IMG/VR virus record: IMGVR_UViG_3300009788_000023
Location: 1 to 54,429 of that record
Source: a virus
Taxonomy: Duplodnaviria > Caudoviricetes
Reading direction: 5' to 3' (one strand)
DNA length: 54,429 nt
Of this stretch, positions 7,254-21,313 are shown piece after piece. The position numbers were made by a program, and so were the translations under genes. The notes below the pieces were generated by a model, which saw only the letters and a list, made by a program, of their open reading frames with translations, had not been told where the DNA came from and did not search any database. Every line of letters starts with the position of its first letter. Position 1 is the stretch's first letter.

Positions 7254-7363
7254 TTTTACCTTCTTTCTTTTAAGACCGAGTTCCTACGCATATTAACAAT
7301 GCGCTACCAACACCTACGATATTCTCCTTGGCTATCCATAGCCCTTGCTTATGCGTTGCGGGC

Positions 7364-7423
7364 GGACCCGGGTACTGCATTACGGTACCGTCTCGGGATA
7401 GGTCCTCGTCGATAGCTGAGACG
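7364..7423 (-). ncRNA. Putative pseudoknotted RNA element
   Basis: Stem CGTCTC/GAGACG; loop GGACCT pairs with downstream GGGTCC; intervening GGTAC/GTACC hairpin. Confidence 0.35.
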
Positions 7424-7501
7424 CTTTATCCATCCTTGGAAGTAAAAAAGGAAGGCCGAAAAAGCTTTGTGTATCATAACGGAGTAGGAGTTGCAAAAAG
7501 G

Positions 7502-7621
7502 TGCAGGCAGGCAGTTGGTACTGCGATTCATATGGCAAGCACTACAAGTTTGACCGCGGATTATTCTGACATTGGTGAAATCACCAAAACTACGAATCCG
7601 GTTCCTGCGCCGCTGCCTGCA
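7502..7621 (-). ncRNA. Putative multibranch structured RNA
   Basis: Closing stem GCAGGCAG/CTGCCTGC; inner CGGATT/AATCCG and TTGGTG/CACCAA stems. Confidence 0.4.
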
Positions 7622-7724
7622 TAAATTATCTTGAAAAGTTCGGGGACTGGCCATAATCGTGCGCCAACACAAGCCAATCCCCATGTCACGGAAATGACAT
7701 AAATTGTCTGAAAAATTAGGTGCC

Positions 7725-7811
7725 TGGCGGGCAGAAGTTGCATCTACGACCTGTGGGTATGCCTTGCGGCAGTGACCCACCGCTCTAACTATCGCATCTG
7801 AGCTACCGCCA
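7725..7811 (-). ncRNA. tRNA-like RNA lacking an anticodon loop
   Basis: TGGCGG TA GCTC AGATGCGATAGTTA GAGC G GTGGGT CAC TGCC-GCAA-GGCA T ACCCAC AGGTC GTAGA TGCAACT TCTGC CCGCCA folds as a cloverleaf. Confidence 0.65.
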
Positions 7812-7812
7812 T

Positions 7813-7894
7813 AAAAAAAGCCCTGTGAAGAATACTGGTCAGAGAATTCCACAGAGCCTTTATAAGCACCTAATTGTATTTGACCAGTATCCAT
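7813..7894 (-). promoter_or_regulatory. Leader/attenuator element A
   Basis: ATACTGGTCA (7881-7890) complementary to terminator loop TGACCAGTAT (7832-7841); stem GGCTCTGTG/CACAGGGCT + T-run. Confidence 0.6.
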
Positions 7895-7902
7895 AAGAAA
7901 CA

Positions 7903-7931
7903 ACTATATCAACCTTCCTCACATTTGTCAA
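7903..7931 (-). promoter_or_regulatory. Sigma-70-type promoter
   Basis: TTGACA-17-TATAGT. Confidence 0.8.
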
Positions 7932-7943
7932 TATAAAAATAAA

Positions 7944-8213
7944 TTATTTCTGAGATTCATTGAGTTCGTTAAAAGCAGTACATAATCTCATAAAGATATG
8001 TTGCACATTTCGGGGGTGCTCTAATTGCTCAAGGCCCCATTTTTCTTGGTCGGCCTTATCTATTAGCATGTCAAGAGTAGTCTCTATGCCACAAAGCTCC
8101 TGTTCCCGCAGGCGTTTATTCTCGGCTCCCAAGTGGTTTATGAGCTTAACGACGTGCTTATCCATATTGTCTGGATTGTGGAATTTCCAGAAGTTTTCGA
8201 ATTGCTCAGACAT
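7944..8213 (-). CDS. Hypothetical protein
   Basis: GAGG RBS; ORF track. Confidence 0.65.
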   Translation of the reverse strand: MSEQFENFWKFHNPDNMDKHVVKLINHLGAENKRLREQELCGIETTLDMLIDKADQEKWGLEQLEHPRNVQHIFMRLCTAFNELNESQK

Positions 8214-8230
8214 TTTCTTTCCTCTTTCCT

Positions 8231-9319
8231 CTAAAAAAGCTGTATCAAAGTCCTAAACGCCAGTTCCGCACATTGCGGCACTACTCCGTTTCCCAAGAGC
8301 CTAAGTCTGTCCACCCGACTGGCAGGCCCATTAGCTGCTCTACCCAGTCGGGGTTTAGTTTGCCCTTCTGTTTCATCCTGTTTAGATTTCGCCCTATGCA
8401 GGTTTGTTTGCTTTCGGGTATCGTCCTTGCCCCTTCTACCCAATCGCTTGCTTGTGGAGTTCCCCACAACTCTTGGCTCTTCCCATTCGTACTGGGGCTG
8501 TCCGGGGCGAGAAGGCCAACGGCATCCCTGAGAGCGGCCTGGCCCTCTATGTTCTGGTTGCTCTTGAATCGTATTGAATTGCCTCTCTTGAATACTTCCC
8601 TGTTGTTGTCCAGGCAGTCCATTGTCTGTGGTGTCGGCCAGTTCACCGGTAATTTGCCCCTGTGTAGTGTTGCGTTGTGTAAATTGAACTGTGTCGCTGA
8701 CCATGTTCCTCCGTGACCATGTCCGGCGTCCGTTGCCATTATTGTTGGCCAGGATAAACAGCCTTTCTCTCTTGTGTGGGCAACATTCACACCTTTCGAT
8801 TTCAATAGTTTCTCCATCTTCAAACGTGATTGTTTCTGTAAATGTCGAGATACATTCACACGCTGTAAACAGTCCTGCCTCGACATAGTAACCCAAATTT
8901 CGTAGGCTTCGATAAACCTCGGGGTATCCGATGATAAGATGTCCTGAGACATTCTCGAAGAAGCACCAAACAGGTCTAACTGCCTCGATGATTCTTTCAA
9001 TATACGGCCAAAGGTGTCGAGGATCGTCTGTTCCCTGTCTTTTGCCGGCGACTGAGAAGGGTTGGCAGGGATAACCGCCAGTGATGATATGTACTTGGTT
9101 ACGAAACGGTTTTCCATTAAAGGATTTAATATCCGTCCAGATAGGCGCCGCATCCAGCCGCCCTTGTTCAATCTTCGATACCAGGTTCGCACAAGCGAAG
9201 GCTTCGATCTCCACATAACAGATTGTTCTAAGGTTCGCAATAACTCTACGGAGTCCCAATTCCAGCCCACCGTATCCCGTACACAGGCTGATACAGTTAA
9301 ATTGTTCGGTATTATCCAC
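8231..9319 (-). CDS. C5 DNA cytosine methyltransferase, alpha-type chain (motifs I-VIII and X)
   Basis: LCTGYGG, GYPCQPFS, FFENV, PHKRERLF, LGNGVVP; GTG start proposed at 9319. Confidence 0.85.
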   Translation of the reverse strand: MDNTEQFNCISLCTGYGGLELGLRRVIANLRTICYVEIEAFACANLVSKIEQGRLDAAPIWTDIKSFNGKPFRNQVHIITGGYPCQPFSVAGKRQGTDDPRHLWPYIERIIEAVRPVWCFFENVSGHLIIGYPEVYRSLRNLGYYVEAGLFTACECISTFTETITFEDGETIEIERCECCPHKRERLFILANNNGNGRRTWSRRNMVSDTVQFTQRNTTQGQITGELADTTDNGLPGQQQGSIQERQFNTIQEQPEHRGPGRSQGCRWPSRPGQPQYEWEEPRVVGNSTSKRLGRRGKDDTRKQTNLHRAKSKQDETEGQTKPRLGRAANGPASRVDRLRLLGNGVVPQCAELAFRTLIQLF

Positions 9320-9321
9320 AT
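8281..9321 (-). CDS. Alternative-frame partner of the C5 methyltransferase (WPTP repeats, motif IX-like)
   Basis: 346-aa frame overlapping the MTase on the same strand; WPT/WGTP repeats and LNPDWVEQLMGLPVGWTD. Confidence 0.7.
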   Translation of the reverse strand: MWIIPNNLTVSACVRDTVGWNWDSVELLRTLEQSVMWRSKPSLVRTWYRRLNKGGWMRRLSGRILNPLMENRFVTKYISSLAVIPANPSQSPAKDREQTILDTFGRILKESSRQLDLFGASSRMSQDILSSDTPRFIEAYEIWVTMSRQDCLQRVNVSRHLQKQSRLKMEKLLKSKGVNVAHTREKGCLSWPTIMATDAGHGHGGTWSATQFNLHNATLHRGKLPVNWPTPQTMDCLDNNREVFKRGNSIRFKSNQNIEGQAALRDAVGLLAPDSPSTNGKSQELWGTPQASDWVEGARTIPESKQTCIGRNLNRMKQKGKLNPDWVEQLMGLPVGWTDLGSWETE

Positions 9322-9329
9322 GTAACCTC

Positions 9330-9369
9330 AAAAACCGGCGCCGGGGCAAGCATCGAAAACCCCGACGCC
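9330..9369 (-). terminator. Intrinsic terminator-like hairpin abutting the MTase RBS
   Basis: GGCGTCGGGG/CCCCGGCGCC + TTTTT then GAGG. Confidence 0.5.
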
Positions 9370-9382
9370 TTATTCGAAACAA

Positions 9383-9637
9383 CTATCCTTCGTTTGTGGT
9401 TTCGCTCGGAAGTTCGCCCAAAGCCTCTTGCTCAGTCTCAAACAGGTTCTTTTCAGTCTGTGCGATAGTTACTCTTACAAGCGTTCCTTCCTCGCAAAGA
9501 TACGAAAGCCTGCCGATCTCTTCGGCTGGGAATACGAGGCTATCAAAGAACGGCATCAAATTCCCGTTTGGTAAGTGCCTGAAGTTCTTAATTCTTGAGG
9601 CTTGGCCGACTGCCTTTACAAATTTTTCCTTTGCCAT
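9383..9637 (-). CDS. Hypothetical protein
   Basis: AAGGA RBS; ORF track. Confidence 0.65.
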   Translation of the reverse strand: MAKEKFVKAVGQASRIKNFRHLPNGNLMPFFDSLVFPAEEIGRLSYLCEEGTLVRVTIAQTEKNLFETEQEALGELPSETTNEG

Positions 9638-9687
9638 TGTTCTGTGTGTCCTTTCTTGTGCGTTAAGTAAAAAATAATTGTAATTGC

Positions 9688-10155
9688 TTACTTGTCTTGC
9701 TGCATCTTCAATTCCATGCCTCGGAGCTTGAGGATGAAGGCGTGGATGTCTGATTCTTTGACGCGATATGGGTGTATAATAAGGGCGCCATCGTCAATAA
9801 GCACTCTTTGGTTGCCTTTGCCAAACCCATCTATCGGCTTGATTTCGGCGAGGTCGGTGAAGATGTTGCCGAGGACGGTATTGCTCATTTGATTCTTACA
9901 TCCACCTATCGGCATATTACTTTTACCTACTTGCATCAAATCATTACCATGCTTGATAACGATTCTTGCATACCCATCGGCATTTCCACTGTCGGTATAG
10001 CCATAATCCCCATGCCGAAGCTCCGGCTTCTCAGGCTCGGCGAGTTGTTTTACTACCCTGTTAACTTCGTTGTTTGCTTCGACGTATTTGGCGTAGGCGA
10101 GGTCGTTGTCTTTTCTGGCTTGAGCTAATTTGTGTTGGATTTCTTCTTTGTTCAT
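9688..10155 (-). CDS. Hypothetical phage protein
   Basis: Start reassigned to MNKEEIQ; upstream part of the ORF is a structured non-coding segment. Confidence 0.65.
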   Translation of the reverse strand: MNKEEIQHKLAQARKDNDLAYAKYVEANNEVNRVVKQLAEPEKPELRHGDYGYTDSGNADGYARIVIKHGNDLMQVGKSNMPIGGCKNQMSNTVLGNIFTDLAEIKPIDGFGKGNQRVLIDDGALIIHPYRVKESDIHAFILKLRGMELKMQQDK

Positions 10156-10260
10156 TTCTTTGCTCTCAAAATTTAAGTTATAATTGCACCCAGCAGCGCT
10201 TCCAGTGGCCGTAACCGCATCGGGCATCGTTGCCAAAGGGGTCTGCCGGGCGTAAGGAGA

Positions 10261-10506
10261 TTACTCGCTACTCAGTAAATCGTTCGGATCGAGCCATTCT
10301 GCGTAAACTATAACGCCGGTCAATTTGACGATATCGCCCTGTTCGACGTACATATCAGGGCCCAAGTTCCAGCCTGTGTGCGGGGCTCTCTGTCCTTCCA
10401 GTACTGGGGATATCATACCGTCACCCCTTTGGCACCCGCACAACGGCAGGCACAACGGCAGGCACAACGGCAGGCACAGTAGTAAACAAATTAGAATCCG
10501 TTTCAT
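10261..10506 (-). CDS. Lipoprotein
   Basis: MKR + hydrophobic stretch + LCGC lipobox; AAAGGA RBS. Confidence 0.65.
   Translation of the reverse strand: MKRILICLLLCLPLCLPLCLPLCGCQRGDGMISPVLEGQRAPHTGWNLGPDMYVEQGDIVKLTGVIVYAEWLDPNDLLSSE
10438..10478. repeat. 12-bp tandem repeat (GCACAACGGCAG x3.4) in the lipoprotein signal peptide
   Basis: Direct reading; encodes (LPLC)n. Confidence 0.9.
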
Positions 10507-10534
10507 AATATGTCCTTTCGAAAAAAGTTAATAG

Positions 10535-10609
10535 GGCGATAGGCGGGATTTGAACCCGCAACCCCCGGAATCACAGTCCGGTGCTCTAACCAGTTGAGCT
10601 ACTTTCGCC
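10535..10609 (-). tRNA. tRNA-His (GUG)
   Basis: GGCGAAAGTAGCTCAACTGGTTAGAGCACCGGACTGTGATTCCGG...GGTTCAAATCC...; G-1:C73 present; CCA not encoded. Confidence 0.9.
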
Positions 10610-10632
10610 ATTACAATCGCCCAGAAAAACAC

Positions 10633-10737
10633 TTAGCGTCAGGTGTCGGGCTACACTTCTTAGGGACTCCCGACTCGCCCTGCCATATGGACCCGTTATC
10701 CTGATACCCCCGAGACGGGTCAACCTCGGGGCGCCAG
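10633..10737 (-). ncRNA. Putative structured RNA containing an H-type pseudoknot
   Basis: S1 CCCCGAG/CTCGGGG, S2 GACCCGT/ACGGGTC, followed by CAGG..GTCGGG/CCCGAC..CCTG hairpin. Confidence 0.5.
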
Positions 10738-10859
10738 CATATTAAATTGTCAAAGTTGGGGACGGCTACGGATAAAACCGTCCCCGGAGTCTGAAAATAT
10801 GAATCGGCCGGTGATAAAGTATCGGGCTCTGCCGGCTTACCCGTTTGAAAGGTAAATCC

Positions 10860-11999
10860 CTAATTGGCTTTCTTGTAACAAATTGGGCATAATATCGAAC
10901 CGCCTGCTGCGGAGTTGCCCTCTTCTTTATTAAAGCTATGGTTACAGCCCTTGCAAGTAAAATCTTTTTCATCAAGCAGTTTATCCGCGGGATTCTCGAC
11001 CGGTGCAGGCTCTTCTTCCGGCGCCTGTTCTGGGATAATATCGACGGGCATCGGGGCTTCCTGGACCTGCTCGACCGGCATCATATTCTCTTCTTTAGTC
11101 GGCTCAGGGGGAACACTAACAGTATCTTTGTTCATTTCCTCGGCTGTAAGAGTCGTTTTTGTGACGGTTTCCTTCTTCTTATTCTTAGAGCCTTTGGGGC
11201 GGCCTTGCTTCTTCTTAGCATTCTTATCGGCCTCGGCAAGCTGCTCAACCTCGGTCTGCTCAAGGGGGACGACGTTTTCCTGTTGTGGCTGCTCTACAGG
11301 CTGGCTCTCGACGTGCTTGGGCGGCGTTACGGCGGCAGTTTCTTCCTTCATGCGATTAAGTAAGCCTGCTGTGCCAGTCTTTGGTGCGTCCTCAGTAGGG
11401 ACGAAAGTCTCTGTCAGTGGCGGGGCTTCAATGTCAGCAAGTTCGTCAATAGTGTACATTCCCTGAATTAAATCGCTGTAATACCGCCGACAATGCCGAC
11501 TTACTGCTCGCCATGTGAGCATGTCTTTGGGATATTTTATCCAGTTATCCTTCTTTTTTGAGCCGCCTTCCCACAAGTTTGCTCGCTTGGCATCATCGAC
11601 CGAAAACTCTGTCACATTAACCGCCGATTCATTCCGTCGCTTTGACGTTACCATAGCCCTGTAGTTGTCCTCGTAAGGCGTACCTTCAAAATAACAGGTA
11701 ATATACTCACAGGCGCCACTCTTGCGTGCCAATGCGAGCATTGCAGAGCCTTCCATCCCCAGTCGGCCATTGATAACGTGCATTATTTGCATCGACTGCC
11801 ATGGCTTAAATCCAAGCTCTGCGCCTGCTTGAAGAACAACAACGACCTTTTCGGGCCGGTCTAATCCATAAGGGCATAATCCTGATTGGACGAACATCTT
11901 AGCGGTTCGCCACAGGTCGTCAATTGTCCCCAACTGCAAACTGCCTTGAACGACCTGCATTTGCGTTGGTTTTGTTGTTTGAATTTCGTTTTCTGCCAT
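10860..11999 (-). CDS. RecT/Red-beta-like single-strand annealing protein
   Basis: GAELGFKPWQSMQIMHVINGR, AKRANLW, WIKYPKDMLTWRA; near YqaJ. Confidence 0.8.
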   Translation of the reverse strand: MAENEIQTTKPTQMQVVQGSLQLGTIDDLWRTAKMFVQSGLCPYGLDRPEKVVVVLQAGAELGFKPWQSMQIMHVINGRLGMEGSAMLALARKSGACEYITCYFEGTPYEDNYRAMVTSKRRNESAVNVTEFSVDDAKRANLWEGGSKKKDNWIKYPKDMLTWRAVSRHCRRYYSDLIQGMYTIDELADIEAPPLTETFVPTEDAPKTGTAGLLNRMKEETAAVTPPKHVESQPVEQPQQENVVPLEQTEVEQLAEADKNAKKKQGRPKGSKNKKKETVTKTTLTAEEMNKDTVSVPPEPTKEENMMPVEQVQEAPMPVDIIPEQAPEEEPAPVENPADKLLDEKDFTCKGCNHSFNKEEGNSAAGGSILCPICYKKAN

Positions 12000-12017
12000 T
12001 ATTTCTCCTTTTAAGTA

Positions 12018-12467
12018 TTAACTAAAACGTTCAATCCAGTCCGCTTCCAGCATTTCCCAGATGCGGCCTAATCCTTCTCTGAGAAACACCTTATACCACT
12101 CGTCTGCCCTTAAAGACGAACCATCATAATAACAAGCACAGCCAATATACGGACATTTTTCTTTCATAGGCTCTTGGTCGTCAAACATTGGCGTTGGAGA
12201 GTGATAGCCTACATCAGCCCCCATACCTTTGAATGAATTGTATGTACCATGTTTATTCCACAGTTCATCAGTAACTTCAGGAAGATGAACTGGCAAATAC
12301 GCAAGAAACTGGACGGCTTTTTTATCTTTAATTACTAAGCAATGCAAAGTCATGCCCCCAATCCCATAATTCTTCTTTGGGTCTGGATGTCTGCGGTCAA
12401 AAGGTGGAGTTATGGTCAATTGGCGAACGTATCCATTCACATCCTCTTTTATTGTGCTTTTTTCCAT
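12018..12467 (-). CDS. Hypothetical phage protein
   Basis: GGGAG RBS; ORF track. Confidence 0.7.
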   Translation of the reverse strand: MEKSTIKEDVNGYVRQLTITPPFDRRHPDPKKNYGIGGMTLHCLVIKDKKAVQFLAYLPVHLPEVTDELWNKHGTYNSFKGMGADVGYHSPTPMFDDQEPMKEKCPYIGCACYYDGSSLRADEWYKVFLREGLGRIWEMLEADWIERFS

Positions 12468-12477
12468 AACTTTCTCC

Positions 12478-13431
12478 CTAAAATTTCTTTTTCGGCGGCT
12501 TCTTGATTCTTAAAACTCTTGATTTTGATACATTCTTGTACTTTTCGAATATCTCAGGCTCTTTTTCTTTTAAGTCGCTACCGCTGATAGTTTCTTTCGT
12601 ATGTTCCAGATAAGTTACTATCCTCCCATCCTCAAGATATACGCCCTCGGCATCACCCATATAAGTAGTTACTTCAGTGTAAGCCCCTTCTAAGATGTCT
12701 TTAGTTAATTTTGCTCCTTCTCTGGCGTTTTCCCAAGCCGTAACGAGCACCATAAACAAGGTCATTTCATCCTTGCCGAGCTTGATAATCTTACCTGGCT
12801 CCCGTTTTCTACGCTTTGCCATAGCAAAAGACGGAATAATATCCGGTGGCGGCATATCCTTCTCAACGTAGGTTTCCCAGAAGTCCATCGCCGTATCGCA
12901 GATAATGTCTATCATTTCCTGCTTGCGGCTAACGTGGTACATCACAAAGCCCTTGCCGCCTAATAGGACAGGTACCCAGCAAACTTCCCTGTCCCAACAG
13001 AGCATGTGGACGTGGCCTTGTACGAGGATCCGATCAGGCAATTCATCGCTTCCAGGTTCACCGTAATATTCCACAAACGGGCCAAGGATGCCTGCGGTCT
13101 TTGCTTCGACAGGAACGCCAGATGCAATAACTTCTCCGTCTGCATGTGAGCCTATTGGGAAGCCCTGTGCTTTGCGGAATAGAGCGGAACCATCTTCCTG
13201 CTCGCATTTAATCGGGCCAAGATCGCCTTCTGCCCACGACAAAATGCCTGCTTCCAATTTATTGCCCATATCGAGCCAAGGTTTATTTGCTGGGTCTGGG
13301 CCAAGTTTGCCAGTTTTGTCCATCCAGCAATCGTATGCGTTACCATAAGGGCTTACCCCTAAAACCATTGCCATATCGCTTGAGCCCAACCAGCCTTGAC
13401 GGGCCCGTCTTTGTTCTTCTGTAATTCCCAT
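12478..13431 (-). CDS. YqaJ-like viral recombinase exonuclease
   Basis: RQGWLGSSD, GNKLE, HADG, VEAKT, Q..V.M motifs. Confidence 0.85.
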   Translation of the reverse strand: MGITEEQRRARQGWLGSSDMAMVLGVSPYGNAYDCWMDKTGKLGPDPANKPWLDMGNKLEAGILSWAEGDLGPIKCEQEDGSALFRKAQGFPIGSHADGEVIASGVPVEAKTAGILGPFVEYYGEPGSDELPDRILVQGHVHMLCWDREVCWVPVLLGGKGFVMYHVSRKQEMIDIICDTAMDFWETYVEKDMPPPDIIPSFAMAKRRKREPGKIIKLGKDEMTLFMVLVTAWENAREGAKLTKDILEGAYTEVTTYMGDAEGVYLEDGRIVTYLEHTKETISGSDLKEKEPEIFEKYKNVSKSRVLRIKKPPKKKF

Positions 13432-13432
13432 G

Positions 13433-13900
13433 TCAAAAATTCGTCCTTGCGAATTCTCCATAAAGTTCTATTGCTTTGGTATCATAGGCCTTTGCTGCCT
13501 CGATTTCATCGTCAAAGCGGCCATAATGCTTGCTACCCACCTGAAGCATCCATCTTTGTCTTGCTTTATCCCAACACACCCCCTTGTAGTTAGAGCTTGT
13601 ATTGAGGCGTTTTTTTGCATTTGCGTGATTAAGGCTATAGTTGCAAAACCTTAGATTTAATCGTTGGTTATCCAAGCCGTTTCTGTTGCGATGGTCTATC
13701 TGTTGCCCTTTGTTGGCTTTCATTATCATTCTGTGCATATAAGGATGCTCGCTTTTGCTTTTGCTGATATAGATAGATGTTTTGGCATAACAATTTCCAG
13801 AGTCCGTCTCAAAATAAAACCACTTCAGCTTTCGGAGCCACTCAAAATCTTCATCATCCACAATAGCAAAATAGCCCTGAGTCAATTCAATCTGTTTCAT
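13433..13900 (-). CDS. HNH-AP2 homing endonuclease
   Basis: YMHRMI, IDHRNRNGLDNQRLNLR, SNYKGV, GRFDDEIEAAKAYD. Confidence 0.9.
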   Translation of the reverse strand: MKQIELTQGYFAIVDDEDFEWLRKLKWFYFETDSGNCYAKTSIYISKSKSEHPYMHRMIMKANKGQQIDHRNRNGLDNQRLNLRFCNYSLNHANAKKRLNTSSNYKGVCWDKARQRWMLQVGSKHYGRFDDEIEAAKAYDTKAIELYGEFARTNF

Positions 13901-13981
13901 AATTCAATCCTCAAAAATCCCCAGCCACGAAAGCGGCAGGAAGAAACAAATGTCGGTTATAAAGTGTAATATTTTCATAAT

Positions 13982-14022
13982 AAAAGCCCGCCGGTTCGCC
14001 GGAGGATAACGCCCCGACGGGC
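13982..14022 (-). terminator. Intrinsic terminator-like hairpin
   Basis: GCCCGTCGG/CCGGCGGGC + TTTTATT after the lysozyme gene. Confidence 0.5.
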
Positions 14023-14032
14023 CCGTTTCAGG

Positions 14033-14533
14033 TCATTCGTAAAGTCTCTTTTTCACTTTCTGCCAATATGCTTTTGTGGAATCCTTTTTCCATCCGTTCG
14101 GGCCGCCGTTGTGAATTCTTGCTATATCCTCAAAGGTAGGTTCTCTGCCGATGCGTTCTTTTGTGGCGTAATGCTCAAGGTAGTGCTTAACCATACATTT
14201 ACTGTACCAATAGTTGTGCCTATCTTCGTATTTGAATTTGTATGCCTTGTGCTGATATGTAGATTGCAATATCCGGTTCACATCATCGACGTAGATAGAA
14301 TGAATCTGGAAGCTCCCAATTGCCTTACCATTGTCGCCTACGGCGTGTTTGTTCCCCCCGCTTTCCACGAACTCCATCGCATCGAGTAATTGCTCAAAAG
14401 GCGGCTTTGGAGCCGAAGCGTGCGGTATAGTCAATTCGACAGTCCGCTTCATATCAGCCCCGGCTTCACGGCAGACAATCGCCATCAGGTAGATGAACGC
14501 AAGTCCCAAAAGTACGCAAAATAGTGTTTTCAT
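14033..14533 (-). CDS. Lysozyme-like muramidase/transglycosylase (i-type/destabilase-like) with N-terminal hydrophobic anchor
   Basis: VESGG, GSFQIH..Y..D, ARIHNGGPNG motifs. Confidence 0.75.
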   Translation of the reverse strand: MKTLFCVLLGLAFIYLMAIVCREAGADMKRTVELTIPHASAPKPPFEQLLDAMEFVESGGNKHAVGDNGKAIGSFQIHSIYVDDVNRILQSTYQHKAYKFKYEDRHNYWYSKCMVKHYLEHYATKERIGREPTFEDIARIHNGGPNGWKKDSTKAYWQKVKKRLYE

Positions 14534-14557
14534 AATAAAACCCCTTCAAAATAGTAA

Positions 14558-14661
14558 ACGCCCGGCCACTTTCCTTTTTGCATTTTTATGTCAATTGATG
14601 TAAACCCAGTTCAATAATTAGCTCTTTCTAAAAAGTTAATCAATTGTTTGTGGCCGGGCGT
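14558..14661. repeat. 12-bp perfect inverted repeat enclosing 80 nt
   Basis: ACGCCCGGCCAC / GTGGCCGGGCGT; inner CAATTGAT/ATCAATTG. Confidence 0.8.
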
Positions 14662-14730
14662 ATTACGGCTTAAATAAACAGCAGGAGGCATCCTTGCCCT
14701 TCACTCCGTTGGTCCCTGCTGAGTCCATAA

Positions 14731-14937
14731 CTACTTTCCAAGAATTGCTATCAGCAAAAGAACTATGCCTACGATTACTAATATAGCCAAAGTAACCACT
14801 GCTGGCAGCCATAGTGGAGCAGTAACCCACCACCAAGACCATGTTATCTTTTCGAGCAACTTGAGTATTAAAAATACAATAAAAGTTGCTCCACAAACTC
14901 CAATTCCACCTGATGAACTTGATGATGTTGTGCTCAT
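14731..14937 (-). CDS. Small two-TM phage membrane protein
   Basis: SSSSGGIG...FLILKL..ITWSWWWVTAPLW pattern common in phages. Confidence 0.75.
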   Translation of the reverse strand: MSTTSSSSSGGIGVCGATFIVFLILKLLEKITWSWWWVTAPLWLPAVVTLAILVIVGIVLLLIAILGK

Positions 14938-14939
14938 AA

Positions 14940-15239
14940 CTATTTCCTTCCTGCTTCGTGTCCATGCCTTAACATTTCTTGCCCTGCTTCTGCCGTCCAG
15001 GTTATATCTCGCCCGAAACCGCCGACAGCTTCGCATCCGTGAATAAACCCCATCGAGAACAGAAGCACCGCCACGATCCCCCAGAGCAAATAACTCTCGA
15101 CATGGCGGATTTTGTTCGATACCGCCCGAAGTCGCTCCACATCGCCCCTTGTGTACGGTAACTCGCTACAAATTATACTCCGTAGCCGAATCCGTTCACC
15201 TTTACACTCTGCTAAACTCATTTTTCTAACATTCTTCAT
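14940..15239 (-). CDS. Membrane protein with entericidin-like C-terminus
   Basis: TM segment then GCEAVGGFGRDI. Confidence 0.55.
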   Translation of the reverse strand: MKNVRKMSLAECKGERIRLRSIICSELPYTRGDVERLRAVSNKIRHVESYLLWGIVAVLLFSMGFIHGCEAVGGFGRDITWTAEAGQEMLRHGHEAGRK

Positions 15240-15276
15240 TTTGCTTTCCTCTCTCTCCCGCTCTCAAGGTTACGGT

Positions 15277-15492
15277 TTATATTGTCATTCCATCTGGATA
15301 TTTAGTAGCTAATGGCCGGTAATCATCATCAGCTTTTTTGCCACATTCTCCGCACTTCATTTCAGGTATGACGTTATTGTGAAAATTACTATCGTCATAA
15401 CCTCGGCCTTCTTCCGTATGACCGCAATGTTCGCATTCATAAATAGCCCTAAAATCGCGCCTATGCTGGCTTGTTATTTTCTGTATTTTCAT
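15277..15492 (-). CDS. Small zinc-finger phage protein
   Basis: HRRDFRAIYECEHCG...CGECG; GAGGTG RBS. Confidence 0.75.
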   Translation of the reverse strand: MKIQKITSQHRRDFRAIYECEHCGHTEEGRGYDDSNFHNNVIPEMKCGECGKKADDDYRPLATKYPDGMTI

Positions 15493-15540
15493 AATTTCCA
15501 CCTCATAATTAAAGTCTAAGAAATAAAATTCAGGTATGCA

Positions 15541-15653
15541 AATAAAACCGCCAGGGAGCGGAATCGTCGGAAAGAATTGATAGACGCCCCTTGACGGTAC
15601 GATTGCCGTTTTAAGTTGTTTTTTGAGTGTTATCATTTTTCCGACGATTCCAC
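15541..15653 (-). promoter_or_regulatory. Leader/attenuator element B
   Basis: GGAATCGTCGGAAA (15638-15651) complementary to 15560-15573 in the loop of hairpin ACCGTCAAGGGGCG/CGCTCCCTGGCGGT + TTTATTT. Confidence 0.6.
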
Positions 15654-15685
15654 TTGATTCAATTGTCAATCTCTACTATCGACTC

Positions 15686-15714
15686 ATTATATCATAAACT
15701 TTAACATCTGTCAA
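15686..15714 (-). promoter_or_regulatory. Consensus sigma-70 promoter (leftward)
   Basis: TTGACA-17-TATAAT. Confidence 0.85.
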
Positions 15715-15776
15715 TAAAAATCCAATTTAATTATGAGATATTTTTGATAGTACAAGATTTAATAGTATTTTTTAGC

Positions 15777-15805
15777 TTGACAAATGGATTAAAGTGTGGT
15801 ATAAG
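15777..15805 (+). promoter_or_regulatory. Sigma-70 promoter (rightward, integrase operon)
   Basis: TTGACA-17-TATAAG with TG extension. Confidence 0.7.
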
Positions 15806-15828
15806 CGGATAATTGATACTATTTAAGG

Positions 15829-16014
15829 ATGAATAAAATGTTATATAAGTGTCCAGACTGCGGAAACGAGTTCGCCGGATATGACGATTCGGCCGGTGAG
15901 CCGTGTATCTGCGGTGGAGTTTACTATCCTACGCAGCTAAACGAAGATGAAAAGGTGCTCTGCGCTGAAGTTGACAGGTTATTTGGAGTTGAAAATGGCG
16001 AAGAAAAAACTTAA
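15829..16014 (+). CDS. Small zinc-ribbon protein
   Basis: CPDCG...CICGG. Confidence 0.6.
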   Translation: MNKMLYKCPDCGNEFAGYDDSAGEPCICGGVYYPTQLNEDEKVLCAEVDRLFGVENGEEKT

Positions 16015-16204
16015 ATTATTTGTATGGGATGATTATGCCCCTGATTATTCCCCCGGCTTAGCTTTTGCGATTGCCGAAGATTCTGAGCAAGCAAGGGATA
16101 TGATTGAAAAAGATGTAGGTTACAGGAACGACAGCCTATCTGCTACCCCGGATACTTACGACCTTACAACCCCTGTTGTTTATGCTTGTTCAGGGGGTGG
16201 ATAA
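15995..16204 (+). CDS. Hypothetical phage protein
   Basis: GGAG RBS; MAKKKLKLFVW...GLAFAIA. Confidence 0.7.
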   Translation: MAKKKLKLFVWDDYAPDYSPGLAFAIAEDSEQARDMIEKDVGYRNDSLSATPDTYDLTTPVVYACSGGG

Positions 16205-16374
16205 TGGCACGAACGAAAATTAACACCTGCCTCGGATGCGGGAAAGTTATTCCGCTTGACAGGGTTTGGTGCGATGAATGTGAAATACATAGCCCCGAGG
16301 ACGACTATCAATTTGGCATGGGGGATTTAGACGAATATGAGGATTCTACCGACTTTCTGGAGGATGAACTATGA
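16204..16374 (+). CDS. Small zinc-finger protein with acidic tail
   Basis: CLGCG...CDEC; TAATG coupling. Confidence 0.6.
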   Translation: MARTKINTCLGCGKVIPLDRVWCDECEIHSPEDDYQFGMGDLDEYEDSTDFLEDEL

Positions 16375-16616
16375 AATGCCCAAAATGCCAAAGGAAAACC
16401 GAAGTAACAGACTCCCGACCAGCGCCAAATAACAGAATTAGGCGCCGAAGGGGTTGTCCAAATTGTTCTCATACCTTTACAACTTATGAATCAACCGATA
16501 TTAGCGAGGACAAGGCCAAGTTATTGAGAATGCAGGAAATACAACTGAAGTTGATAGACAAACGAGTCCGTGCATTGCAAGCTTTGATGCGCAGAATGGA
16601 GAAGGCAAGTGTCTAA
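16371..16616 (+). CDS. NrdR-like N-terminal zinc ribbon protein lacking the ATP cone
   Basis: MKCPKC..T.VTDSR....IRRRRGCPNC..TFTTYE. Confidence 0.8.
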   Translation: MKCPKCQRKTEVTDSRPAPNNRIRRRRGCPNCSHTFTTYESTDISEDKAKLLRMQEIQLKLIDKRVRALQALMRRMEKASV

Positions 16617-17634
16617 AGCATGGGTAACAAAGACTAAATCAGGCAACTTTCAAGTGTCATGGTACGAAGGACGCGACCAAAACGGCAAACTCAAGAAACA
16701 TTCCAAAGTACAGTATTCCCGGGACCAGGCCGAAGGATTCAAGGCCGATATTATACACAAGCTCAATCGCGGACTGACTACAAGCCTTCTGGCTGTGCCA
16801 TGGGACCAACTCAAATACGAATACATCGAGGCAAAGCAGGCCGAAAGAAAGGCCAAAGCGACGATAATCGAGATAGTAGGCATGTTCAAGCGTTTCGAGC
16901 GACTTGTCGGCCTACTGCGGTCCACGGAGCTCCAACAGGAGCACCTTGACAAGTTTAAGCGACTCCGAGGGAACGAATGCAAGTCGGCCAACACTCTGAA
17001 TAAGGATTTAGCCAACCTCAAGGCGTTCGTTCGCTATTTTTCCATCGACAGGGCTTATATTAGGCCGTATATGGTCATTAAGCAGGTCAAGGCGACTGTT
17101 AAGCCTGTCCGGGCGCTGACTGAGGAACAGATCCAAAGCCTTTTGTGTTCGTTAAAGCAAAACAGCCGGCCATATTATATTCGGGCCTTGCTTGCGCTCT
17201 GTGCCGGTCTGGACGTTAGCTCGATAGACTACATCCGGATTCAGGATATTCATTTCGAGGACGATACGATAGATACGTTCCGGCCTAAGAAGAGTAAGTG
17301 GCACGCTATGCGCCCTATTCAAAGTGCTGTTATGAATGAAATCGCCGACTTCTGGTTGCATCAAAAGGACGGGCAGGTTCGGTTATTGCCGGATAGATAT
17401 ACCTGGTACGCGTGGAATCAACTGTGCGATAGTGCCGGTATAAACTCGACTTTCCATAATCTTCGCAAAACCTACGCAAGTATGCTCGTCAAAAAAGGCG
17501 TTTCTTTGGCTGTCGCGCAGGGCTTACTTGACCACCAGTCGATTGAAACAACTCGAAAGTTCTATCTCGACATAACCGGGGAAGAAAAAAAGGCAGCCGA
17601 TAGTTTACCGGCAGCCTCTTGGATTGGCCGATAG
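16609..17634 (+). CDS. Tyrosine recombinase/integrase (box I Arg replaced by Asp)
   Basis: SANTLNKDL, HNLRKTYA, LDH...TTRKFY; box I reads AGLDVSSI. Confidence 0.85.
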   Translation: MSKAWVTKTKSGNFQVSWYEGRDQNGKLKKHSKVQYSRDQAEGFKADIIHKLNRGLTTSLLAVPWDQLKYEYIEAKQAERKAKATIIEIVGMFKRFERLVGLLRSTELQQEHLDKFKRLRGNECKSANTLNKDLANLKAFVRYFSIDRAYIRPYMVIKQVKATVKPVRALTEEQIQSLLCSLKQNSRPYYIRALLALCAGLDVSSIDYIRIQDIHFEDDTIDTFRPKKSKWHAMRPIQSAVMNEIADFWLHQKDGQVRLLPDRYTWYAWNQLCDSAGINSTFHNLRKTYASMLVKKGVSLAVAQGLLDHQSIETTRKFYLDITGEEKKAADSLPAASWIGR

Positions 17635-17639
17635 TTTAG

Positions 17640-18050
17640 TTACGCCACTTGAAAATCAACCCGCGGGGCGCAGGAATCAGAGCAATAACTTCCCCAGTAT
17701 TTTTTAGGTAACGGTTTTCCGTTTAGCTCGTATTGGTCGTCAAACCAAAATCCTTCGCAGTCCGTGTTATACAGTTCGCCGCAAACATCGCATTTTTCGA
17801 TTGTATCTGGTAGGCAATGTATGGTTTCTTGTAGATAGTATATCAGACTAAAAGCTTTGTTTTGGGACAACTTTGGACGGAATTCGCCAGTCAAGTATTC
17901 ATATAACTTGCTCACTTGTTCGCAAATCCCAATATAATTATCGGTCTTTTCTTCGGCTTCAGAGTTCTCATTGCGAGTGCAACTCCAGCATTTTACGCCA
18001 TAATTGTTTTCATTCCAACAATTGGAAACTCTCAAAATACATTTAATCAT
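17640..18050 (-). CDS. Cys-rich hypothetical protein
   Basis: ORF track; several CxxC pairs. Confidence 0.65.
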   Translation of the reverse strand: MIKCILRVSNCWNENNYGVKCWSCTRNENSEAEEKTDNYIGICEQVSKLYEYLTGEFRPKLSQNKAFSLIYYLQETIHCLPDTIEKCDVCGELYNTDCEGFWFDDQYELNGKPLPKKYWGSYCSDSCAPRVDFQVA

Positions 18051-18202
18051 TTCCCCAACCCCCTCTCCAGTAGCTGTTTGTAAAACTCCGCTTTACTAAG
18101 CTCCGCGTTCTTCGCAGCGGCGCGATGATAGGCAATCATAACCTTGCGATATAACGGCAGGTCGATATTTAGCGCCCTTTGTTTTTTGCGTTCTTTTGTC
18201 AT
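18047..18202 (-). CDS. Ribbon-helix-helix-like small DNA-binding protein (51 aa)
   Basis: Manual translation MTKERKKQRALNIDLPLYRKV...LSKAEFYKQLLERGLGK; GAAAGG RBS. Confidence 0.55.
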   Translation of the reverse strand: MTKERKKQRALNIDLPLYRKVMIAYHRAAAKNAELSKAEFYKQLLERGLGK

Positions 18203-18205
18203 TGT

Positions 18206-18298
18206 TCAAGCCTTTCTAACTAAAAGTTTCCATAAATTGAGTAAAATATAGTTTGTGAGTAATAACTGTGATAATATCGCAATTAAGAACCATATCAT
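18206..18298 (-). CDS. 30-aa hydrophobic membrane peptide
   Basis: MIWFLIAILSQLLLTNYILLNLWKLLVRKA; AAAGGA RBS. Confidence 0.5.
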   Translation of the reverse strand: MIWFLIAILSQLLLTNYILLNLWKLLVRKA

Positions 18299-18377
18299 AA
18301 TATCACTTCCTTTCTAAGCCCCCAAAAAAGTTTCTGAGTCCTATTGCATTGGCCGTGTCGATATTTACGGGCGTTTT

Positions 18378-18791
18378 TCAGCCTGTATCGCCTGTAATCG
18401 CTGTGTATTGGTAAACGTGCTTGTGAACTTCACAGAAATCTGTTTTACATTTTTGGCACGTGGCGGTTTGGTTCGTATAGGTGATTTCGTCCCAGTCGGT
18501 ATCGGAACAATCCCACACTATATCGTCGCCCATTGCGCCACATTTCGGACATTTACTCTCGCATCGGCGCTGATTGTCCTCAATTTCCGGCTCGTTTAGC
18601 TTTTCGAGTAGCTTGTTAAAAGCTAACTTGTCGATAATCAAATCGGCGTTCAATGTTTTGCCAGAGCGACCGATAGCGTCAACATAAACCATTTCGTTTC
18701 CATCCCAAACGTGGACAGCTTTTAGTTTATGCGTTCCATTCCTGCCAGTAACGAGCGAGCGTTCTACGTTTGTTTCTTGCATAATGTTCAT
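18378..18791 (-). CDS. Hypothetical protein with C-terminal zinc ribbon
   Basis: GAAAGGGG RBS; CPKC...CQKC. Confidence 0.7.
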   Translation of the reverse strand: MNIMQETNVERSLVTGRNGTHKLKAVHVWDGNEMVYVDAIGRSGKTLNADLIIDKLAFNKLLEKLNEPEIEDNQRRCESKCPKCGAMGDDIVWDCSDTDWDEITYTNQTATCQKCKTDFCEVHKHVYQYTAITGDTG

Positions 18792-18859
18792 AATAAACCC
18801 CTTTCAAAAGTTATCAAAACAGTTATCCGGGAACTCCGCAGAGCGCCCGGCAAACGGTT

Positions 18860-19204
18860 TTAATATAAGTCGTCTATTGCATCCTTGAGGTTTTCTTTCA
18901 ATTCGTCCAATTCATCAGGAGTCAAGTATTGCTCATTAAGCTCAATAAGAATACCGTCCGTCGTCTGTGAGTCCAACCAATCGCATTTTCCGCAACGATA
19001 GGCTATTGGGTCATTCTCTTTGAGAAACTTGGCAGGTTCGATGTGAACGCCTAATATCTCATGTTCTGGCGTTATCTCGTTGAGCATTTCGTCGTATTGA
19101 TCATCCAATTCATCGTAAGATAAACCGCCAATTTCAATGCCCAAAGTTTCCGATAATTCTACCAATTTTTGGTCATCGTCAATTTTCTTTTGTTCTGCTT
19201 TCAT
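18860..19204 (-). CDS. Acidic hypothetical early protein
   Basis: AAGGAG RBS; YDEML.E...LKE.DPIAYRCG..DW.D. Confidence 0.75.
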   Translation of the reverse strand: MKAEQKKIDDDQKLVELSETLGIEIGGLSYDELDDQYDEMLNEITPEHEILGVHIEPAKFLKENDPIAYRCGKCDWLDSQTTDGILIELNEQYLTPDELDELKENLKDAIDDLY

Positions 19205-19232
19205 TTTTTCGACTCCTTAATAAAGTTAGTGG

Positions 19233-19403
19233 TTAATCTTCTAAGCCTTGCATTAAGGCTCTCATATATTCCATGCGTTTCTGCTTATCAGGAAAGGCAC
19301 GCCGTGTGCCGTAATCAAGGTTTTCTCTGATTCTAATATCACTTAACCCGATAGTTTCACTGAGTTTTAACTTGTGTCTATTCTTAAACTTTTTAGGCTT
19401 CAT
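19233..19403 (-). CDS. Small basic hypothetical protein
   Basis: GAAAGGG RBS before MKPKKF. Confidence 0.6.
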   Translation of the reverse strand: MKPKKFKNRHKLKLSETIGLSDIRIRENLDYGTRRAFPDKQKRMEYMRALMQGLED

Positions 19404-19471
19404 GGCTTTCCCTTTCAAAAGCCCCGCCCGGCAGATATTCCAACTACCAAGTGGAGCGGGAGTTGGTTGTA

Positions 19472-19627
19472 TCAAGCCTTATCCCATCTTCCAGTAAATC
19501 CCCATTCACACAACATCGCAAAGCTTACGGCTATCCACAAAGGTATGCTTACACAGATTACAAAAAAGCCAGCGAGCAACCAAATAGGGGATGTAATAAT
19601 TATAGCTACTAATCTTAATAGTTTCAT
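19472..19627 (-). CDS. Small membrane protein
   Basis: GAAAGGG RBS; long hydrophobic stretch. Confidence 0.6.
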   Translation of the reverse strand: MKLLRLVAIIITSPIWLLAGFFVICVSIPLWIAVSFAMLCEWGFTGRWDKA

Positions 19628-19652
19628 AATTCCAACCCTTTCAATTAAAGTT

Positions 19653-19742
19653 AATAAAGCCCACCGACCAGTAATCAACCGACCAAAGAAGAGAATTGAG
19701 GCCGATGGGCGTTGTTTTAGTTGTTTGGTCGATATAGCACAT
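19653..19742 (-). promoter_or_regulatory. Leader/attenuator element C
   Basis: ATCGACCAAA (19724-19733) complementary to TTTGGTCGGT (19678-19687) in the loop of GCCCATCGGCC/GGTCGGTGGGC + TTTATT. Confidence 0.55.
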
Positions 19743-19777
19743 ATACAGAGGCTATGAATAGCCCCGCCCTGCGGATT

Positions 19778-19957
19778 TTAGATACCCATATCACGTCTGG
19801 CGGCGGCTGCCGATGTGCCGCAAATATCTCTGAGAATCTGATTCTTTGCCCTTGCAGCAGCGTTACGCTGGCACTTAACACAAAAAAACTTACCATTGCG
19901 CTTGCTAATTGGTGCTCGGTGTTTCTTGCAGACTAAAATGCCGTTTTCATGTTCCAT
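19778..19957 (-). CDS. Small zinc-finger early protein (59 aa)
   Basis: Manual translation MEHENGILVCKKH...FFCVKC; AAGGGG RBS. Confidence 0.6.
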   Translation of the reverse strand: MEHENGILVCKKHRAPISKRNGKFFCVKCQRNAAARAKNQILRDICGTSAAAARRDMGI

Positions 19958-20003
19958 TTTTAACCCCTTGTTAAACTCGATTAACTTGTCATTTACTACT
20001 CAA

Positions 20004-20032
20004 ATTATATCGGCTATTTATGTTGTTGTCAA
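20004..20032 (-). promoter_or_regulatory. Consensus sigma-70 early promoter
   Basis: TTGACA-17-TATAAT. Confidence 0.85.
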
Positions 20033-20141
20033 CAATAAAATGTAACCAATTGTAATATTTATTCGATGATAACAGTTATAGTCTATAATAATAGTATAAA
20101 AAATATTAAGATTAATTTGCTTTTTTTGACGATAGAGTAAA

Positions 20142-20224
20142 TATGATTAAAGAGTTTATACTGTTTGTTATTTGCAATTCCGTCGGGCGGGTTATCTTTA
20201 ATCATAAGCCGTCCGGCTTTTTTC
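20142..20224 (+). promoter_or_regulatory. Leader/attenuator element D
   Basis: TATGATTAAAGA (20142-20153) complementary to TCTTTAATCATA (20195-20206) in the loop of GTCGGGCGG/CCGTCCGGC + T-run. Confidence 0.6.
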
Positions 20225-20230
20225 TTGCTT

Positions 20231-20437
20231 ATGAGACCAAATAAACATAAACGCAAAAGACAGAACAAACACCAACAGAGCCCATTTTGTAAGCGTATTT
20301 TAGCACTACTCAATACCCAGTCAATAACAGGCAAAGAGCGCGACTTCCTAACGGATTGTTACGGCTCAAAGTCTGTAGGCAAACAGCAGCAATATATCCT
20401 TAACAGGATAGAAGATAGACAAAGACAATTGATTTAA
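20231..20437 (+). CDS. Small basic hypothetical protein
   Basis: MRPNKHKRKR...ITGKERDFL..; follows element D. Confidence 0.55.
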   Translation: MRPNKHKRKRQNKHQQSPFCKRILALLNTQSITGKERDFLTDCYGSKSVGKQQQYILNRIEDRQRQLI

Positions 20438-21056
20438 GGCAGCTTTAATCCCTGTCGTGTAGTAAGGGCGGCGAAAACAAAGCGAGTCGCAGGATTAATC
20501 GCAGATGGATCAGCGGCGCAGTAAGCTGGCCGGAACATAAAACTTAGACGTCGAAAAACCTACTCAACGCAAAGTTAAGACTCGAACCAAATTCAGCAGA
20601 AGTCTCGGACGTTTCACCGATTAAATGCTTAAACAATTTGGCTATTCTTTCAAAAATAGTGCCAGACAGGGCCTTAATTCTGTCAACTTATAATAGTCTT
20701 TACTAATAAATCAGCGCATAAAATCAGACAGTAAACAACTCCAAAAGCGACTATAAACAAGGTAGAATGAATGAACGTAGAGTGAGTCCAGAACGAACGA
20801 AGTGAAGGAATGAACAACTAAGATAATTGAATTGATTAAATGAAGTGCAATTATAAACACAGTCTATAATACCAGCTTGAATGAGCAATGCAGTACTAAT
20901 AGACGGTTGAATAAGTAGCTTGTGTATCATAACCAATGAAATATGAGACACAAACCAGCTTGTGTGTAGTGTATCAGACTCAAGGCGTTAATACTATCAG
21001 ACCTTGCAATATGTAGTACGGCTCAATCTTTCCCGGTTAACCACTACCACCAGTAT

Positions 21057-21085
21057 CCGCTTTAATACCGCTTTATACCCGCTTT
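21057..21085. repeat. CCGCTTT x3 at 11-bp period
   Basis: Direct reading. Confidence 0.7.
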
Positions 21086-21256
21086 TAGCCCTGTATATGG
21101 GCTCATTGTAGCCCTGATAGTGTGATTATAGTATGATGCGGGTAATAGCGTAGTGTTAAGTGTGGTAGTAGCAAGCACTTAGTGATAGTGTTGATAGTAT
21201 AGATAATACGATTAAGGCTGTTTAGGGCTCAATAAGGCGATTCTCTCAGAAAGGTC

Positions 21257-21293: not shown

Positions 21294-21313
21294 TCCCATT
21301 ACTACACTCCCCC

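Follow-up and report, generated by a model that had tools for sequence, protein, structure and literature searches.

Leaders with interleaved helices and an open frame across the terminator in the early region of a temperate phage: possible translation-gated attenuators

Results

Four leaders of common architecture in a temperate phage genome

IMG/VR record IMGVR_UViG_3300009788_000023 is a complete viral genome of 54,429 bases with direct terminal repeats; the whole of this stretch, hereafter the window, was analysed here for a set of four leaders (A–D), each of which combines a terminator-like hairpin, a second helix interleaved with it, and a short open reading frame (ORF) that crosses the hairpin without interruption. 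The virus is a temperate phage: it carries an integrase gene alongside genes for RecT-like and RecE-like proteins, HNH nucleases, a methyltransferase, a portal protein and a major head protein, with nearly all genes on the minus strand. A promoter scan finds three strong sigma-70-type promoters, all reading leftward (Table 1). Leaders A and B each directly follow one of these, as a preliminary description of this DNA had claimed; leader C lies behind the first gene of the operon served by the third—a gene for a 59-amino-acid (aa) protein, whose promoter is the one without a leader before its first gene—and for leader D the scan finds no promoter. The genes downstream of the leaders are phage early genes, among them recombination genes and small genes without an assigned function. 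Of the sequencing runs listed, only one, a DNA run from a subsurface metagenome that may be the source of the record, contains this stretch, and none is of RNA.

Read in the 5′ to 3′ direction, each unit begins with a segment ‘a’, followed by a linker (L1; unstructured and in most members A/C-rich), a segment ‘b’, a second linker (L2), a segment ‘a′’, a short third linker (L3), a segment ‘b′’ and a U tract. Segments b and b′ are the two halves of a GC-rich stem (helix P2), the loop of which holds L2 and a′; segments a and a′ are complementary to each other (helix P1). The two helices are interleaved and have no nucleotides in common, thus describing a pseudoknot topology. P1 comprises 12 pairs in A, 16–17 in B, 10 in C and 11–12 in D; P2 comprises 9–11 pairs, with one bulged base in B (an A in stem half b). 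From the base of P1 to the U tract there are 10–12 nucleotides (nt) in A, B and D. At the 5′ end of leader A, 9 nt lie between the −10 hexamer and the start of the ATG, and the ORF of leader D overlaps the ATG of the next gene at 20231.

All four sites lie where the preliminary description had placed them, and its view that the structure is shared whilst the pairing letters differ holds for the set: the stems of A–D are unrelated in sequence, and all pair. Its estimate of 10–14 nt for the pairing segment describes A, C and D (10–12 pairs), whereas that of B is longer. Both smaller features that it had listed are also there, namely an AATTC in or beside the hairpin (4/4 sites, against approximately 0.145 expected per 90 nt; in D it lies before b, outside the loop) and an A/C-rich stretch common to B and C. 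The longer form of the first motif, CAATTCT, falls in two different reading frames in different members.

Table 1. Coordinates of the leaders, promoters and neighbouring features in the window
Feature	Coordinates	Strand	Details
Promoter before leader A	7903..7931	-	TTGACA, 17 nt, TATAGT, TG before -10; 11/12 matches
Leader A	7812..7894	-	ATG 7894-7892, a 7892-7881, b 7858-7850, a′ 7841-7830, b′ 7827-7819, U tract 7818-7812
Stretch behind leader A	7349..7811	-	leader frame open 181 codons; tRNA-like start
Promoter before leader B	15686..15714	-	TTGACA, 17 nt, TATAAT, with TG; 12/12 matches
Leader B	15540..15653	-	a 15653-15638, ATG 15636-15634, b 15597-15588 (bulged A), a′ 15573-15558, b′ 15556-15548, U tract 15547-15540
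71-aa gene	15277..15492	-	
Integrase gene	16609..17634	+	
Consensus promoter of operon with 59-aa gene and leader C	20004..20032	-	12/12 matches
59-aa zinc-ribbon-like gene	19778..19957	-	first of 20032-promoter operon; homologues directly behind family leader in G001 and G004
Conserved intergenic hairpin	19745..19781	-	from right after the gene's stop codon to an ATG
Leader C, 33-codon ORF	19641..19742	-	ATG 19742-19740, a 19733-19724, b 19710-19700, a′ 19687-19678, b′ 19669-19659, U tract 19658-19653, stop 19643-19641
Leader D, 33-codon ORF	20143..20244	+	ATG 20143-20145, a 20143-20153, b 20182-20190, a′ 20195-20205, b′ 20209-20217, U tract 20218-20223, stop 20242-20244
ORF-poor stretch	20440..21300		right of leader D

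The layout exceeds chance expectation

With the sites already seen, we wrote a descriptor of the layout (at least 9 pairs in P1 and 7 in P2, a 14–50-nt loop and a U tract) and applied it to the 54-kb window, where it returns exactly A–D; 60 dinucleotide shuffles of the same window give a mean of 0.15 matches (maximum 2), with P1 never exceeding 10 pairs. The concern that patterns of this kind might arise as often in shuffled DNA is not borne out. Across 253 unrelated loci (1,977,881 bases) the descriptor finds 9 distinct matches, against 4 in one shuffle per locus. Such layouts are uncommon overall, and the genome of the window shows an enrichment of roughly 15-fold or more. A relaxed version of the descriptor (5-pair stems, 8-pair helices) gave output too noisy for use. 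Folding of the single sequences gives z-scores of −1.64, −3.31, −3.03 and −2.39 for A, B, C and D, respectively. Taken with the relatives set out below, the feature is real, conserved and more than chance.

Both helices are kept across a family of 12 members

Direct similarity offers few ways out of the window: a close relative of the phage was found neither among cultured phages (megablast) nor among viral contigs probed with portal or integrase proteins, and blastn with the leaders returned only promoter-like chance matches and no relative. Searches of other phage DNA by other routes have nevertheless yielded eight further members in five other viral records, making a family of 12 members in six records. 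Record G001, reached through a relative of the 59-aa gene, has a promoter followed by a leader of the same layout (G001-1) with CAATTCT in L2 and a CAA-rich L1; G007 (G007-1) was added by pattern scans; and G004 (G004-1, G004-2 and G004-3), G005 (G005-1 and G005-2) and G006 (G006-1) were found by searching with a conserved hairpin that lies upstream of leader C. Every one of the 12 members has, reading with transcription, a GC-rich stem of 8–15 pairs and then a U tract.

Two groups within the family are homologous, and both appear to keep the two helices through compensatory changes. The first pairs leader A with G004-3 (G004 24808-24727), in which L1, P2, the U tract and ~100 nt of downstream sequence are retained: 42/42 alignment cells are paired, with both partners replaced in three pairs and a single partner in three more, whilst slid controls reach at most 47.6%; with two sequences the shuffle control is not significant (74/500). 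The second is the trio G001-1/G007-1/G004-1, in which 98% of P1 is paired, with one change on both sides; as MAFFT misaligned the variable stems of P2, its compensatory changes were here judged by eye. The strongest support for both helices comes from comparing members with nothing in common at the level of letters—A, B, C, D, G004-2, G005-1, G005-2 and G006-1—all of which nonetheless pair.

As defined by its sequence anchors the family is rare. A sequence-anchored pattern scan returned 40 stretches from viral contigs, two of them real, and no real case among 37 stretches from genome contigs or 42 from metagenome contigs; a looser scan of viral contigs gave at least 115 matches and one new true member (L249), which the strict filter had rejected. 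No family in Rfam 15 matches the leaders (the window at the gathering threshold, positions 7600-8000 and 15400-20400 at E up to 10), in line with the earlier impression that this is not a named motif; two tRNAs are the sole Rfam matches across the whole window.

Similar arrangements were also seen outside the family. An unrelated AT-rich phage (locus L154; 6401-6299 and 5338-5238, both minus strand) has two promoter-proximal leaders of the same layout, with helices of 18 and 11 pairs and without an ATG. At locus L004 (1863-1961, plus strand), a 13-pair helix joins an upstream segment to the whole loop of an 11-pair terminator; its linkers measure 1 and 0 nt, so that the two helices must be mutually exclusive. 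Finally, an identical interleaved-helix element of ~84 nt occurs in three records labelled as different organisms (L082 7266-7349, L105 6345-6428 and L153 6418-6501), and may be a shared mobile element or a contaminant.

An open frame crosses the terminator in every member

The first six leaders (A–D, G001-1 and G007-1) each contain a single ATG in the span that runs from 30 nt upstream to where the U tract ends, and no stop codon interrupts its frame before that point. That such a frame crosses the hairpin had been claimed for the four window sites, is true of all of them, and extends to the entire family: a frame with its ATG in or near segment a is open through the terminator and U tract in 12/12 members. 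The other frames are open over the same span in 5 of 24 cases, none of them with an ATG (Fisher's exact test, p = 4.9e-6, or 4.3e-4 with homologues collapsed to 9 members).

The Gly-Phe that the preliminary description had placed at the base of the hairpin is present in A, C and D; in B the corresponding bases read GGU UUU, one base out of register, and the dipeptide is not a property of the family, being found outside the window only in G004-3, the homologue of A (five of the eight members there have Gly-Leu-Phe or Gly-Leu-Tyr, and G004-2 has Gly-Ala-Phe). It is incidental, and results from a stem whose last bases, GGC or GGGC, run into U's. Between G001-1 and G007-1 the indel inside the ORF is of 3 nt, an indel of 2 nt occurs only in the U tract, and the peptides differ at many positions; it follows that the open frame is conserved and the peptide is not. 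The listed peptides of the members contain no run of regulatory codons.

The place at which the leader ORF ends varies. In four members its stop codon shares bases with the start of the next gene, as ATGA (G004-2, G005-1 and G005-2) or TAATG (G004-1); the stop lies 14 nt before the next ATG in C and 11 nt after it in D, and falls inside the next gene in G001-1, G007-1 and G006-1; in B the leader frame continues in frame into the 71-aa gene, and in A and G004-3 it stays open for 181 and 134 codons, respectively. Stop/start overlaps are the usual sign of translational coupling.

The ATG lies inside segment a or at most 3 nt away from it in 8/12 members and 6–14 nt upstream of it in three more, such that an initiating ribosome and P1 would be mutually exclusive in 11/12. 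In G005 (L273 3785-4009 and 3999-4082) the stop codon of the gene preceding G005-2 comes directly after segment a, and ribosomes finishing that upstream gene would thus sit on a. In A, G001-1, G007-1, G004-1, G004-2 and G006-1 the ATG follows the predicted −10 hexamer by 7–11 nt, so that the transcript would begin at the ATG, or a few bases before it, with almost no 5′ untranslated region.

This last geometry can also be read without any role for a ribosome. Transcription of these six members would begin at the base of P1, and the leaders could be constitutive ‘dosing’ or stability elements, a fixed share of transcripts passing the terminator, both products having a paired 5′ end, and the ORF being non-regulatory; the L154 leaders, with their layout free of ATGs, point the same way. 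We consider this quite unlikely, as it leaves unexplained why all 12 members have an open frame, the single ATG, and the ATGA and TAATG overlaps.

A possible mechanism

The reading that we favour, tentatively and at somewhat less than even odds, is that the four sites belong to a family of translation-gated intrinsic terminators (attenuators) of the pyrBI kind. The leaders open early gene blocks, or stand between them, in a small group of temperate phages, which agrees, as far as position goes, with the earlier proposal of a family gating early operons. A ribosome would load on the nascent 5′ end at the ATG in or next to a, without a Shine-Dalgarno sequence, trail RNA polymerase, and cover first a and then b as it reads on through a′, b′ and the U tract. 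With the ribosome present neither helix would form, and transcription, together with coupled translation, would continue into the operon. If no ribosome has arrived by the time a′ is made, P1 would form and bury the start region; P2 would then form and transcription would stop. The product made in the absence of a ribosome would be a short, compact and untranslatable RNA, sparing ribosomes from running off an RNA without a stop codon.

We infer translation of the ORF, termination at P2, coexistence of P1 and P2 and the direction of the switch alike from the DNA. Within these bounds translational coupling seems the best-supported reading: of the two kinds of switch that had been proposed at the outset (translation-coupled or controlled by a factor acting in trans), the translation-coupled half is favoured because the hairpin-crossing frame is kept in 12/12 members. 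It would account for the single ATG at a, the open frame, the stop/start overlaps, the unstructured A-rich codons that follow the ATG, and the interleaving of the helices.

Folding order and compatibility of the two helices

Before b′ has been made, the nascent RNA folds into P1 in 6/6 members tested. With pseudoknots excluded, P1 is also more stable than the terminator state in A (−21.7 versus −17.2 kcal/mol) and B (−38.8 versus −24.5 kcal/mol), whereas in C, D, G001-1 and G007-1 the balance favours the terminator state. L3 measures 0–5 nt in 9/12 members, and L2 measures 6–15 nt in all but D, where it is 2–4 nt. Once folded as a terminator, the RNA is predicted to pair L2 with the 3′ end of a′, giving an extension of P2 that overlaps P1 in sequence.

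Several of these features would suit the opposite logic, in which P1 is an antiterminator: P1 forms first and, as a rigid duplex within the terminator loop, keeps P2 from closing, so that read-through is the default and termination follows when a is occupied, whether by a 70S ribosome on the ATG or by another factor. The early formation of P1, its place as the minimum-energy state in A and B, the short L3 and the P2 extension that competes with P1 all fit, as does the unrelated L004, the helices of which must be exclusive; furthermore, structures just upstream of terminators suppress termination, according to a preprint (bioRxiv 10.64898/2026.06.17.733018). On the other hand, the opposite logic offers no reason for the 12/12 open frames or for the stop/start overlaps, and in G005-2 it would entail an inverse polarity, with translation of the upstream gene causing termination. 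By rough geometry L2 is, moreover, usually just long enough to run along P1, so the two helices could coexist, stacked by way of the continuous a′–b′ strand. On balance we regard the opposite logic as unlikely.

Neighbouring genes and elements

In the 59-aa protein a conserved C-terminal tail follows an N-terminal half that resembles a zinc ribbon; small proteins of L023 and L024 that are otherwise different finish with this same tail. Short metagenome contigs encode five close homologues (77–86% identity), and the protein atlas gave no usable lead. A likeness to TraR/DksA-like zinc fingers was considered and set aside, finding no support in Pfam even at E up to 10.

This gene is pertinent to a further explanation of the leaders, namely factor-dependent antitermination of the type known from lambda N/nut, from Q at PR′-tR′ or from HK022 put, in which the linkers and P1 would form the site for a phage protein—perhaps the 59-aa protein itself—and the polymerase would then ignore these and later terminators. 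CAATTCT is present in five members and CAATTC in eight, L1 is A/C-rich in most, and the ATG box resembles a −10 hexamer and could give rise to a sigma-dependent pause. The 59-aa gene is among the few genes common to the window and G001, adjoins a leader in the window, G001 and G004, and is the sole early gene of the window to lie upstream of any such terminator. Set against this, the protein has no Pfam or PHROG match; proteins of G002 and G003 that share its C-terminal part have no such leader nearby; the partial records G005, G006 and G007 yielded no homologue; the linker motif is absent from several members; and the open frames are again left unexplained. We therefore hold antitermination of this kind to be improbable.

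The hairpin upstream of leader C is itself conserved, recurring in four other viral records (G004 18327 and 21744, G005 23629, G006 9499 and G007 8150); in the window and in G005 it lies directly upstream of a leader, the ORF of which starts at the 3′ edge of the hairpin. For the 71-aa gene behind leader B, the upstream regions of 20 loci that encode it share no leader.

Behind leader A, the ~460 nt from 7349 to 7806 (minus strand) have no positive codon-usage score in any of six frames. The 181-codon frame was rejected as a real gene, having neither a homologue beyond its own record nor a coding signal, and the region may be a non-coding RNA driven by the 7931 promoter. Partial conservation of its first ~100 nt is seen behind the homologous leader of G004. 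Directly after leader A (7810-7720, minus strand), and also at L270 4727-4620 (minus strand), there is a tRNA-like stretch with an acceptor-like and D-arm-like start; as a tRNA it was rejected, since neither ARAGORN nor Rfam makes a call, apart from a poor intron-containing one at a lowered threshold, and no tRNA is called behind the homologous leader of G004. To the right of leader D the window is poor in ORFs for ~0.9 kb and contains scattered short direct and inverted repeats; this stretch could be an origin or attachment region.

The weak or absent coding signal after A and D, taken with the strong promoters and the terminators ~85–110 nt downstream of them, raises the question of whether the terminated products, of ~85–110 nt, are stand-alone small or immunity RNAs that act in trans, as do P4 CI, P1 c4 and StxS. 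There is a precedent in Shiga-toxin phages, in which the PR′-terminated RNA is reported to act as a small RNA (PMC7547250). B, G001-1, G007-1, G004-1 and G004-2 are, however, each followed by a gene within 10–50 nt that has no other promoter, and Rfam provides no match to C4 or any other family. Near-matches to the pairing segments (up to 2 mismatches) occur in the window for leader A at 21058 (a) and at 19665 and 48179 (a′), none of them at the start of the next gene; for leader B there is no further copy of either segment in the window, and for C and D, the 10–11-nt segments of which are too short for specificity, there are many near-matches at chance level. We judge this explanation very improbable.

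Discussion

Weighing translational gating

A number of points weigh against gating by a trailing ribosome. The chief weakness of the model is its need for a coupling pause in the leader: according to PMC4824070, ribosomes do not normally catch up with RNA polymerase over the first ~100 nt except where a pause allows the two to couple. The distance of 10–12 nt from the P1 base to the U tract in A, B and D bears on pausing but is only suggestive. The leader ATGs have no visible Shine-Dalgarno sequence, whereas the genes behind the leaders do; such a lack would fit leaderless initiation in the six promoter-proximal members, but would count against efficient translation of B and C, which are not at the start of a transcript. 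L154 has the same layout in two leaders without any ATG, and in G005-2 the first in-frame ATG lies 54 nt upstream, within the preceding gene. For the open frames, a genome-wide null (692 of 1578 ATGs, or 44%, open for at least 27 codons) is a weak one in so gene-dense a genome; only the local frame control is strong. As to the structures, leader A is not significant on its own in the fold z-score test, the greater predicted stability of P1 in A and B fits an antiterminator equally, and in D the 2–4-nt L2 probably bars full formation of P1 and P2 together.

Comparison with known systems

The closest parallel to the translation-gated reading is the pyrBI operon of Escherichia coli, in which an intrinsic terminator likewise lies inside a short leader ORF and a ribosome close behind the polymerase prevents its hairpin: tight coupling across the pyrL leader peptide keeps the terminator from forming (PMC5021804), and ribosomes close to a terminator repress it (PMC4824070). 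The phage leaders differ in controlling early genes rather than those of pyrimidine biosynthesis, in adding a long-range helix from the start of the ORF to the terminator loop, in having the start codon at or near the 5′ end of the transcript, and in being present in several copies per genome; the UTP (uridine triphosphate)-sensitive pause belongs to pyrBI. By analogy, then, the phage unit would work like the pyrBI leader, yet is not a member of the pyrBI system.

With the trp and his attenuators the phage leaders share a leader ORF and a set of alternative RNA helices that would decide the fate of a terminator. They have no runs of regulatory codons, their helices are interleaved with no strand in common rather than drawn from overlapping 1:2, 2:3 and 3:4 pairings, and their ORF passes through the terminator instead of ending before it. 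In mycobacteria, leaderless short ORFs that begin a polycistronic transcript at its extreme 5′ end are reported to act as attenuators, with polycysteine codons as the means of sensing cysteine (bioRxiv 10.1101/834739); the control of downstream genes by a short ORF at the 5′ end is a point in common with the phage leaders, which lack such a codon bias and have an intrinsic terminator inside the ORF.

Amongst phage systems, the nearest in position are the lambdoid PR′-6S RNA-tR′ region (Q) and HK022 put, where a strong promoter and a close terminator are reported to gate the genes behind (PMC7547250 and PMC9378689). What sets the present leaders apart is that the terminator loop pairs with the start of the transcript; nor was a Q- or N-like antiterminator found among the subset of genome ORFs scanned (38 window ORFs against PHROGs and 13 against Pfam). 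The put RNAs of HK022 contain neither a terminator nor an ORF. In P1/P7 c4 RNA (a1b1/a2b2) and P4 CI RNA (seqA/seqC), part of the leader is complementary to loops in a structured RNA further downstream. That complementarity, within a single transcript, is what the leaders described here have in common with the two; they have no Rfam match and, for A and B at up to 2 mismatches, no copy of a at the start of the next gene, and since the pairing letters differ at every site there can be no shared trans-acting RNA, unlike c4 and P4 CI.

Each of these ideas is known; their combination—a terminator inside the leader ORF, a start codon at the 5′ end and a pseudoknot-like pairing of the loop—was found neither in Rfam nor in the literature searched. 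That literature, which did not cover most subscription journals, describes no early operon of a phage with a terminator loop paired to the beginning of a leader ORF.

Implications

The four paralogues and their eight relatives amount to a natural set of compensatory mutants, by which the mechanism is directly testable. The units are compact and, having different pairing letters, mutually orthogonal, and could serve as tunable terminators in engineered systems. It is conceivable, though we would think it unlikely, that they represent a widespread and uncatalogued class of phage RNA, in which the 5′ end of the transcript pairs into the loop of a promoter-proximal terminator and is here joined to near-leaderless ‘mini-ORFs’; early operons would then be gated by competition between the ribosome and the loop for capture of the nascent 5′ end, as a sensor of host translational capacity that dispenses with a regulator and could set whether the phage proceeds, waits or lysogenises. 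If translational gating is true, a temperate phage would control each of its early transcription units by one small RNA device, and not only by repressor and antiterminator proteins.

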